A stretch of DNA of 64,000 nucleotides. Source: Nitrososphaeria archaeon. GTDB lineage: Archaea; Thermoproteota; Nitrososphaeria; JACIWG01. Under the pieces are notes generated by a model. The model saw nothing but the letters and a program-made list of their open reading frames with translations, was not told the DNA's origin and searched no databases. Position 1 is the first letter of the stretch; each line of letters starts with the position of its first letter. A program made the translations under genes and the position numbers. The stretch is from NCBI GenBank assembly GCA_963760525.1, contig CAVXDT010000010.1, positions 8,098 to 72,097 of the forward strand. Reading direction: 5' to 3'. Positions 46,763 to 50,242 of the stretch are shown piece after piece.

Positions 46763-47016
46763 ATTTAGAATTCGACTTTGTTTTTCTAATAAAGGTTTTG
46801 ATGCAGTATGGAATTTACTAATTACTGTAACCATCAAAGATGGATCTATCCCTCAACTGATCAGATTAATCGATTGCCTTCTGTTGCGCATTATTATGTA
46901 AACAAAAAAAGTGAATTAGAATGCGATATTATTTGGGACGTTCGTCATAAGTGCACTTTATTGGTTGTTGTATACCCAATTCATGTAGCTACACGGGCAA
47001 ACTTATCAATTCAATA

Positions 47017-47562
47017 TCAGATTGAACTGCAGAAATTCATAATGATCTGTGGATTGAATACTTCAGGATGAAAAAGGCAACCGTATAATTCCATAGTCTT
47101 ATGCCTTACAATACAGTCTAATCTTTCAGATTCAGCAAGAGCCACAAAATGTCTTCCTACTTCTATAGCCTTTGAATTTAGAAAATATGAATAAAATTCC
47201 TTTCCGGATACTAACTTGCTTTCTAGAACCACTTTGACATGAAATCTACCTATCATAGTTTTGTCAACCAATTTGCATTCAAAGATTCTTGCTAGAATCT
47301 GCATCCCTGCACAAATGCCAAGAAAAGGCTTACCATAGTCTCTCAGCCATAGAAATCGATCAATGTTATTTAGATACTCGAAGTCTCTGAGGGCAGTACC
47401 ACATATTATGATCTTGTCTGCTTCTCGCAGGTCATTTTCACTTACTTGAAAATAGTGCTTCTCTACCACAATTTGTCTTTGGTTTTTCAATAAATCTTCT
47501 ATTGGTACGACAAATTCAAGTTCACTAAGCTTTTCTGAGCAAACACTTATTATCAATATCAT
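47017..47562 (-). CDS. class I glutamine amidotransferase (GuaA-N-like), triad intact
   Basis: 181 aa with the nucleophile elbow LGICAGMQIL and His/Glu in LFHPEV. Its ATG overlaps the stop of the upstream Dph6-like gene (ATGA at 47559-47562). Confidence 0.75.
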   Translation of the reverse strand: MILIISVCSEKLSELEFVVPIEDLLKNQRQIVVEKHYFQVSENDLREADKIIICGTALRDFEYLNNIDRFLWLRDYGKPFLGICAGMQILARIFECKLVDKTMIGRFHVKVVLESKLVSGKEFYSYFLNSKAIEVGRHFVALAESERLDCIVRHKTMELYGCLFHPEVFNPQIIMNFCSSI

Positions 47563-48239
47563 TTCGAAGTCGACCTTACATTTTTTATCTTAAATGAGCC
47601 CGAATAGTTTTTATGAGTAATATCATAATCGATTACTTCCAATCTTCTTTTGAAAAAAGGGGCATCAAGAACGGTGGTTTCGATCTCACCACCTTCTCCT
47701 GAAGGATTCAAACCGAATTTCTTTTCAAACTCAGCCAGAGTTTCAATCATAGTACCGTCAATTTCCCTTCCTAGGTAACTCCTGTCAAGGGGGTACGCGA
47801 ACACACCAGAAATGATAACTCTAAAGCCTTCTTCAACAATCTCTTTTAGGAGCTCCACTTGGTTTCTCAACCACAATGGGTTAAAGCACCACATATCGAG
47901 CCCAAAACAAATCCTTTGAATTCTACTAGCCTGGTAAACTGACTTAATAGCGCCTGTGACAATCCCTTCAATTCCATACTCTTCTTTTGCATTGACTAAA
48001 GCATCCCGCAAATCCTTCAACTCTTCCTCCTTCTGCCCTTTTGTGTTCTTCAGGACCAATGGAAGCCCTATTGAGTTGGCCTGAACTCTAACAAGTTCGA
48101 TGTTTGGAACATGGAACATATAGCTTTCTTCATTCTCAGAAACTAAACTTATCAAACATGATACTTCATGAAGCTTTTGAGCTTTATAGAAGGCTAGACA
48201 AGAGTCCTTGCCCCCTGAAAACAATATGCCTGTCTTCAC
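47559..48239 (-). CDS. dph6: MJ0570-family ATP pyrophosphatase (diphthine-ammonia ligase Dph6 homolog)
   Basis: GTG start giving VKTGILFSGGKDSCLAFYKA (PP-loop SGGxDS). LVSENEESYMFHVPN and GEGGEIETTVLDAPFF align closely with M. jannaschii MJ0570 as I recall it. Confidence 0.85.
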   Translation of the reverse strand: MKTGILFSGGKDSCLAFYKAQKLHEVSCLISLVSENEESYMFHVPNIELVRVQANSIGLPLVLKNTKGQKEEELKDLRDALVNAKEEYGIEGIVTGAIKSVYQASRIQRICFGLDMWCFNPLWLRNQVELLKEIVEEGFRVIISGVFAYPLDRSYLGREIDGTMIETLAEFEKKFGLNPSGEGGEIETTVLDAPFFKRRLEVIDYDITHKNYSGSFKIKNVRSTSK

Positions 48240-48400
48240 AAAACAGAAACAAAGAGATTCTTTAATAAACCTATCTGAGTATGAAGAAAAGACAAACTTT
48301 GATGAAGAAGACTTGTTATATTCTGGGGAATTCACTCTATCATAAGCGTCCTAAATCTCTATGCGTTAACCTAATATTCAAGTGATGCTTACACCATAAG

Positions 48401-49744: not shown

Positions 49745-50242
49745 ATGCGCTTCAACCTCAACTCTATAGTAGACTGGTTCAGGTCACTAACGATGCCAGA
49801 CAACGTAAGAAAAGGCTACGACTACGTTGTAGCACACACCAAAATAGTCTTGCACGTTGAACCATCAGGGGCAATCGTAGAAAGAAATCTTAGGGATACA
49901 CCTTGGAGCGAAGAAAAATACTATGGACTAGGCAAATTCGGATGGTACAGTGACAAGATAGACTGCTCAGACTATGAGGGAACAGATTATGTTGGGGCAA
50001 AATCGGAAATCCACTGGCCTATGTTCTACTGCCCAACCAACATTCACAGCACACAAAACGGCTGGCTGCAGACAACCCCAATAATAATAGTTGATGCCAA
50101 CTTTCATGGAGAATACAGGAAAGATGTGGTAGTGGATGGTAACCTTATTCACAGCTATCACCCAACAGCTGACGATTGGAGTGGTTCTTCTGCGTGGATT
50201 CACTATAACCTAATAACTGGAGAATGTGTTGATTTAGGATGA
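49745..50242 (+). CDS. hypothetical protein (Trp/Tyr/His-rich)
   Basis: 165-aa ORF with no motif recognised and an uncertain start. Confidence 0.35.
   Translation: MRFNLNSIVDWFRSLTMPDNVRKGYDYVVAHTKIVLHVEPSGAIVERNLRDTPWSEEKYYGLGKFGWYSDKIDCSDYEGTDYVGAKSEIHWPMFYCPTNIHSTQNGWLQTTPIIIVDANFHGEYRKDVVVDGNLIHSYHPTADDWSGSSAWIHYNLITGECVDLG

Follow-up and report, generated by a model that had tools for sequence, protein, structure and literature searches.

A class-I glutamine amidotransferase family coupled or fused to Dph6 in archaea: a probable glutamine-hydrolysing diphthamide synthetase

We analysed a 64,000-nucleotide (nt) stretch of DNA from an uncultured wetland archaeon (contig CAVXDT010000010.1; hereafter the window), in which a gene for a homologue of Dph6, the diphthine--ammonia ligase, is followed by a gene for a class-I glutamine amidotransferase (GATase). 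Both genes are on the minus strand. dph6 (47559..48239) runs from a GTG start codon at 48239 to a TGA stop codon at 47559-47561 and encodes a PP-loop ATP pyrophosphatase of 226 amino acids (TIGR03679, PF01902). The GATase gene (47017..47562) runs from an ATG at 47562 to a TGA at 47017-47019 and encodes a protein of 181 amino acids (PF00117), the proposed glutaminase subunit. A preliminary description of the window had reported that the stop codon of the PP-loop gene overlaps the start of the GATase gene in an ATGA. We re-read both open reading frames and confirmed this overlap (47559..47562, minus strand), in which the dph6 TGA and the GATase ATG have three bases in common.

Both proteins contain the motifs of their families. 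Dph6 has the ATP-binding PP-loop motif SGGKDS at residues 8-13 (48201..48218, minus strand), which is invariant in our alignment of Dph6 proteins (A3). Toward the C terminus is EGGEIE (E182-E187; 47679..47696, minus strand), the EGGE-x-E motif of the Dph6 subgroup, in which A3 shows no variation at E182, G183, G184, E185 or E187. Two further motifs, ESYMFH and GEGGEIETTVLDAPFF, can be read in the 226-residue frame. In the GATase, the catalytic nucleophile is Cys84 within GICAGMQ (codon at 47311..47313, minus strand). The rest of the catalytic triad is in His165-Pro166-Glu167 (FHPE, or FHPEV in the window protein; 47062..47070, minus strand, with His165 at 47070-47068 and Glu167 at 47064-47062). 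The triad had been described as intact, and it is: C84, H165 and E167 are all present, and the Cys-His-Glu triad is invariant both in an alignment of 24 stand-alone members of the family (A1) and in 48 members fused to Dph6 (A2; see below). A motif scan of the window found no second PP-loop and no second GATase nucleophile motif.

A contig from a public wetland sequencing run, which may be the window's own sample, spans 46800-48400 with seven substitutions and no insertions or deletions relative to the window. Because the two match without insertions or deletions, the reading frames and the ATGA overlap are probably not assembly artefacts. The seven strain substitutions are too few to judge selection. 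The public gene call for this Dph6 (P0121) is 258 amino acids long and begins at a GTG at 48335, 32 codons 5' of the start common to homologues. This call is probably too long, because all Dph6 homologues begin with MK(L/T)G(V/I)LFSGGKDS. Approximately 26 nt upstream of the GTG at 48239 is a TATA-like box, TTTATTAAA (48261..48269, minus strand), recognised from the sequence and the general layout of archaeal promoters. Its position suggests a short-leader or leaderless transcript that would begin near 48239. A tract of seven T residues (46904..46910, minus strand), approximately 107 nt 3' of the GATase stop codon, is a possible archaeal terminator.

The PP-loop protein had been called a relative of MJ0570/Dph6, and profile searches bore this out. 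The window protein scored 274.2 bits against TIGR03679 (Dph6_archaeal, an NCBI equivalog model; cut-off 197.3) and matched PF01902 over its full length (3e-72, 243 bits, cut-off 23.2). The PP-loop domains that are partnered with or fused to the GATase elsewhere (DPANN, Methanothrix and six fusions) scored 257-288 bits on TIGR03679, all above the cut-off, and just 37-77 bits on two models of paralogues, PAB0415_fam and TTX_0299. A previous study named the EGGE-x-E motif and the residues at a modelled interface with elongation factor 2 (EF-2) (de Crecy-Lagard et al. 2012; PMC3541065). The counterparts of these EF-2-facing residues, together with the EGGE-x-E motif, are S39, E73, Y102, Q103, A148, E182, E185 and E187, as matched to PF0828 numbering by motif rather than by structural alignment of the window protein, and all eight are invariant in A3. 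The fold was compared using a fused homologue, P0122, rather than the window protein itself. The Dph6 domain of P0122, a fusion homologue with 46% identity, aligned with PH1257/PF0828 at a template modelling (TM) score of 0.94, with a root-mean-square deviation of 1.4 A and 43% identity (Foldseek). What the window protein has in common with Dph6 (EC 6.3.1.14; yeast YLR143W; archaeal PH1257, PF0828 and MJ0570) is a score that passes the archaeal equivalog model, a PP-loop with an EGGE-x-E motif and, in a homologous domain, the fold.

We found that the pairing of the two genes is conserved. The GATase-seeded set consisted of 80 species-level loci fetched with A1 and one from a single-protein search. 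In 75 of these 81 loci, a gene for a Dph6 homologue precedes the GATase gene on its own strand, and 56 of the 81 had an identical 4-nt stop/start overlap, (A/G)TGA. Recurrence of the exact 4-nt overlap in so many loci is far above chance expectation. We also did the reverse test, using A3 to seed the search independently of the GATase, and obtained 78 Dph6 loci with room downstream. The GATase was directly downstream, near or fused in 66 of the 78: 58 abutting or overlapping, 5 within 400 nt and 3 fused. The adjacency seen in the window is therefore kept from either direction, and in distant archaeal lineages. Judged by record titles, the pair occurs in Bathyarchaeia, in metagenome-assembled genomes (MAGs) labelled Nitrososphaeria, in Woese-, Pace-, Nano-, Aenigmat- and Nanohalarchaeota, and in Methanothrix/Methanotrichaceae, Methanoculleus, Methanolinea, Theionarchaea and Thermoplasmata. 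None of the genes for PmbA/TldD, phosphoenolpyruvate carboxykinase, an acetamidase-like protein, fructose-bisphosphate aldolase or an FGGY kinase was kept beside the pair in relatives. Since the flanking genes vary, the conserved unit is a two-gene cassette.

Dph6 and the GATase are also found as one polypeptide. Using the two window proteins, concatenated, as a query, we found dozens of fused proteins of 410-470 amino acids. They match it over 99-100% of its length with 37-46% identity and have the architecture PF01902 + PF28410 + PF00117 (Dph6-linker-GATase), in the order of the operon. The fusions include large Methanothrix clusters (named 'diphthine--ammonia ligase' by NCBI) and others labelled Micrarchaeota or Aenigmarchaeota. 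The gene for one fusion is on a 3.0-Mb Methanothrix-like contig. In a tree of GATase domains, the fused state changes at least twice on well-supported branches and six times by parsimony. A stand-alone Methanothrix GATase forms an unresolved fork with a large, otherwise fused clade that holds NCBI-labelled Methanothrix proteins. Because the tree demands several changes of state, fusion or fission happened more than once.

We modelled two fusions from different clades with AlphaFold2, each from a 48-sequence alignment. Both were predicted to be compact two-domain proteins, with a mean predicted local distance difference test score (pLDDT) of 92.7 and a predicted TM score (pTM) of 0.91 for P0122, and a pLDDT of 91.4 and a pTM of 0.91 for P0183. 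A pTM of 0.91 for a two-domain chain implies that the predicted domains have a defined mutual arrangement. Together with the natural fusions, the models speak indirectly for an interaction of the two proteins. A Foldseek search with the fusion model found no solved chain spanning both domains.

The GATase belongs to a family of its own. The window protein scored 47.9 bits on PF00117 (cut-off 22.8). A word-indexed search with it gave 415 matches, all of approximately 180 amino acids, and those with organism names were from Bathyarchaeia. By exhaustive profile search, the family comprises 183 clusters at 50% identity (E<=1e-30). Its nearest relative in sequence and structure is GuaAA, the GATase subunit of archaeal GMP synthetase. 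The best NCBIfam match of the window GATase was GuaAA (NF001975; 45.5 bits, 6e-12), without reaching the cut-off of 198, and the 24 stand-alone members and six fused domains scored 40-97 bits on the GuaAA model (NF001975 / TIGR00888), with a best E value among the stand-alone members of 1.5e-16. The nearest solved structure by sequence was that of Methanocaldococcus jannaschii GuaAA (MjGuaAA; 2lxn, 2e-12), and a Foldseek search with the C-terminal domain of the fusion model found GuaAA structures at TM scores of 0.72-0.77.

Several comparisons separate this family from GuaAA. The window GATase is 28% identical to MjGuaAA over the full length, whereas archaeal GuaAAs from separate phyla share 51-65% identity. 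Relative to a fragment of M. jannaschii GuaAA, canonical archaeal GuaAAs of different phyla were 55-65% identical and members of the GATase family 31-44% identical over the same stretch. In a maximum-likelihood tree (LG+C20), the Dph6-associated GATases form one clade (support 92/89), and the N-terminal domain of E. coli GuaA groups with 32 archaeal GuaAAs, split from the GATase family by a 99/95 branch. E. coli PabA falls among the GuaAAs on a long branch in the same tree, so the deep rooting is uncertain. The GuaA motifs GxQY (N-terminal), SGGP, W-x-SH-x-DEV and HPEV-x-HT are missing from the family. Its members instead have C..LS..EFV.PI, which is a family-specific 8-residue N-terminal insert, as well as CGTA, YFLNSK and HPEV-x-N with a 4-residue deletion. 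A GuaA-type ATP pyrophosphatase domain (guaAB) was found in 0 of 163 family loci. In contrast, guaAB was directly upstream in 18 of 80 canonical guaAA loci. The placement relative to bona fide GuaAA, on which the preliminary description had made its interpretation depend, came out in favour of that interpretation: the GATase falls outside the GuaAA clade, scores far under the GuaAA cut-off and is never near guaAB.

Our results are most consistent with a pair of genes that work together in diphthamide synthesis. The two genes probably encode the subunits of a heteromeric glutamine-hydrolysing diphthamide synthetase, as judged from comparison of sequences. A glutamine-dependent form of the enzyme had been suggested from the pairing in the window, and the suggestion is now supported by the conserved coupling, the natural fusions and the distinctness of the GATase from GuaAA. 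In the proposed reaction, the PP-loop of Dph6 would bind ATP, and the carboxylate of diphthine on EF-2 would be adenylated. The 181-residue GATase would hydrolyse glutamine through a thioester on Cys84, with the assistance of His165 and Glu167. Ammonia would be handed from the GATase to the Dph6 active site over a fixed subunit interface, where it would displace AMP to give diphthamide. The net reaction would be ATP + diphthine-EF2 + Gln + H2O -> AMP + PPi (pyrophosphate) + diphthamide-EF2 + Glu. We also propose that the 4-nt stop/start overlap couples translation of the two genes and that the subunits would therefore be made at approximately 1:1. We infer complex formation by the unfused pair, transfer of ammonia, dependence on glutamine and the identity of diphthine-EF2 as the substrate.

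A stronger version of this proposal holds that, in much of the Archaea, diphthamide is made by an obligate glutamine-hydrolysing synthetase, heteromeric or fused, whose dedicated class-I glutaminase is active only when adenylated diphthine-EF2 is on Dph6. The lineages concerned would be Bathyarchaeia, most DPANN groups sampled, Methanotrichales, Methanomicrobiales, Theionarchaea and some Thermoplasmata. We give the obligate enzyme, and its extent across these lineages, a little better than an even chance.

Some observations weigh against a glutamine-hydrolysing synthetase. There was no such GATase downstream in 12 of the 78 Dph6-seeded loci, or approximately 15% of the closest Dph6 genes, and the Dph6 of Pyrococcus or M. 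jannaschii is not known to have such a partner. Since the GATase is absent from some lineages, it is dispensable there, and Dph6 in those organisms may use free ammonia. No RNA run with the locus was found, and three small metatranscriptomes of the same study, all from Nanopore sequencing, contained zero reads for it. Finally, archaeal Dph6 activity itself awaits experimental confirmation (PMC8305020).

We considered four other explanations for the gene pair. The GATase might simply be the GuaAA of the organism, working with a guaAB encoded elsewhere, and its position next to dph6 would mean nothing for function. The closest models and structures are indeed those of GuaAA, and many members are named 'GMP synthase (glutamine-hydrolysing)' in IMG. 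However, the family is far below the 198-bit cut-off, the window protein is much less like MjGuaAA than GuaAAs of different phyla are like each other, and E. coli GuaA-N is nearer to archaeal GuaAA than the separate GATase clade is. The missing GuaA motifs, the fusion of the GATase domain to Dph6 in many lineages and the contrast in guaAB linkage (0/163 against 18/80) point the same way, and we regard this explanation as very improbable. A related idea is that the GATase is shared (amphibolic), serving Dph6 and a second synthetase such as GuaAB, in the manner of Bacillus subtilis TrpG/PabA. This would fit a family whose nearest relatives are GuaA-type GATases, as well as the 6 of 81 GATase-seeded loci that had no Dph6 in the fetched sequence and the approximately 10 more with genes between Dph6 and the GATase. 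Yet covalent fusion to Dph6 in several clades favours a dedicated partner, and 0 unlinked copies of the GATase adjoin another PP-loop or synthetase gene. A shared GATase is therefore unlikely.

The pair might also be a glutamine-dependent amidotransferase whose substrate is not diphthine-EF2 but, for example, a corrinoid or some other metabolite, as has been suggested for the DUF71-B12 subgroup. The fused gene on the 3.0-Mb Methanothrix-like contig (L083:6408-7925) is 76 nt 3' of a gene for a 505-amino-acid CbiA/CobB-type cobyrinic-acid diamide synthase (CbiA + GATase_3), an arrangement that recalls the proposed DUF71-B12 link, and the lack of an experimentally characterised archaeal Dph6 (PMC8305020) leaves room for such a substrate. 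Nevertheless, every PP-loop domain partnered with or fused to the GATase scores above the Dph6 cut-off and low on the paralogue models, and no variation is seen at the counterparts of the EF-2-facing residues. In addition, the pair is kept in reduced DPANN genomes, and its neighbours are not conserved, including the B12 gene, which is not common to other loci. We consider a different substrate improbable. The remaining explanation is co-regulation without delivery of ammonia to Dph6, the GATase being a stand-alone glutaminase or a gamma-glutamyl hydrolase. Weak similarity to gamma-glutamyl peptidase and to gamma-glutamyl-CDP-amidate hydrolase could be taken in its favour. A physical complex better fits the 4-nt overlap across phyla, the repeated fusion and the predicted fixed arrangement of the domains, and it is very doubtful that the two genes are merely co-regulated.

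The glutamine-hydrolysing synthetase that we favour would follow the logic of the two-subunit archaeal GMP synthetase (GuaAA + GuaAB; M. jannaschii MJ1131/MJ1575; PDB 2lxn, 7d40), in which a small class-I GATase of approximately 185 amino acids with a Cys-His-Glu triad feeds a separately encoded, adenylating ATP pyrophosphatase. The partner and the substrate differ. In GMP synthetase they are GuaAB and xanthosine monophosphate; in the window they are Dph6 (PF01902/PF28410) and, by prediction, a modified histidine on EF-2. NAD+ synthetase NadE and MurT/GatD share the overall strategy of coupling a glutaminase module to an amidoligase that adenylates or depends on ATP, but they are unrelated to the Dph6-GATase pair in glutaminase family, synthetase family and substrate.

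The pair also differs from Dph6 as described so far. The characterised enzyme uses ammonium, whereas the window Dph6 has a putative dedicated glutaminase subunit, coupled or, in relatives, fused to it, which implies an EC 6.3.5-type reaction. Yeast Dph6 has C-terminal RidA-like domains (PMC3541065); the archaeal pair has a class-I GATase instead. The same study proposed two ammonia donors for Dph6: the RidA domains in eukaryotes and, in a few archaea (Methanohalophilus, Methanosalsum and Nanosalinarum), AsnB, a class-II GATase fused to DUF71. The AsnB-DUF71 fusions are the nearest precedent, in that glutamine hydrolysis would feed ammonia to Dph6 in some archaea. They have an Ntn-fold class-II glutaminase at the N terminus and an extra PP-loop (Asn-synthetase) domain, and are found in few genomes. 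In contrast, the partner described here is a class-I triad GATase, is C-terminal or encoded downstream, and is widespread. No clustering of DUF71 with a class-I GATase was reported in that study (PMC3541065), nor does such a partner appear in a survey of archaeal dph genes published in 2018. Our search of the full-text literature on diphthamide or diphthine with glutamine or amidotransferase found no description of a glutamine-dependent class-I form, which agrees with the statement in the preliminary description that none was known. The combination of a glutaminase with an adenylating synthetase is classical; the Dph6-GATase pairing and the GATase family appear to be undescribed.

These findings bear on annotation. 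We compared names across proteins P0002-P0120 and P0121-P0240. In IMG, members of the GATase family are called 'GMP synthase (glutamine-hydrolysing)', 'GMP synthase-like' or HisH, and many of the Dph6 proteins are called 'ABC transporter with metal-binding/Fe-S-binding domain ATP-binding protein'. At NCBI, the stand-alone GATases that have names are 'hypothetical protein', and one fusion is 'GMP synthase subunit A'. The GMP-synthase labels would be a systematic mis-annotation, which our finding would correct, and they can mislead metabolic reconstructions of DPANN archaea and Bathyarchaeia into crediting them with GMP synthesis.

If the proposal is true, it identifies the source of the diphthamide amide nitrogen in many archaea, and it adds a subunit to a pathway thought to require only Dph2, Dph5 and Dph6. 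The activity, glutamine-hydrolysing diphthamide synthase, would be new, as would a readily recognised family of GATases. If the enzyme is also obligate, a class-I GATase would be tied to post-translational modification of a protein, the enzyme would need an EC 6.3.5 entry of its own, and the subunit would need a new name. The natural fusions are ready single-chain constructs for structural and enzymatic study of archaeal Dph6.

Some observations concern the surroundings of the pair in the window. A gene of the acetamidase/formamidase family (PF03069; 45827-46837, minus strand) is on the same strand, approximately 180 nt downstream of the GATase gene. We considered this neighbour as a source of ammonia and rejected it, as the gene is not kept in this position in relatives. 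A 165-codon open reading frame at 49745-50242 (plus strand) has no Pfam match.

Others concern canonical guaAA. A scan of contigs for a GuaAA-specific motif found mainly Micrarchaeota, Methanocaldococcus and Archaeoglobaceae, with 0 assembly accessions in common with the loci that carry the pair. The coincidence is at the level of phylum only: fusion P0130 is labelled Micrarchaeota by NCBI, and many Micrarchaeota have canonical guaAA, often with guaAB. In seven loci (L167, L169, L185, L187, L189, L193 and L203; six Micrarchaeota and one Ca. Iainarchaeum), a divergent stand-alone PF01902-like gene is approximately 1-2 kb from canonical guaAA, on the opposite strand. Its product is 31-38% identical to the window Dph6, and in the four of these loci for which we read the open reading frames there are one or two genes between. 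The arrangement is more suggestive of lineage synteny than of an operon.

The pair, or the GATase, was also on contigs filed as bacterial MAGs (L002/L086, L110 and L051; Acidiferrales, Limnocylindrales and an unclassified 'bacterium'). The L002 GATase and its counterpart in a Bathyarchaeia MAG share 87% identity. The contigs are probably archaeal ones that were mis-binned.

Finally, a few DPANN loci have a gene between dph6 and the GATase gene. In L075 (4745-6004) it encodes a 419-amino-acid protein with GNAT and squalene/phytoene-synthase-like parts, and in L077 (5048-6004) a 318-amino-acid APH-type phosphotransferase; both genes have 4-nt overlaps at both junctions. Four loci labelled Woesearchaeota or Nanoarchaeota (L036:5762-6004, L048:5763-6017, L054:3997-4254 and L079:2450-2749) share a conserved gene for a DUF3977 protein (PF13122) of 80-99 amino acids in this position. 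The overlaps are of the ATGA type on both sides in L036, and the ends overlap or abut in the other three. The DUF3977 protein may be a third component or an adaptor.

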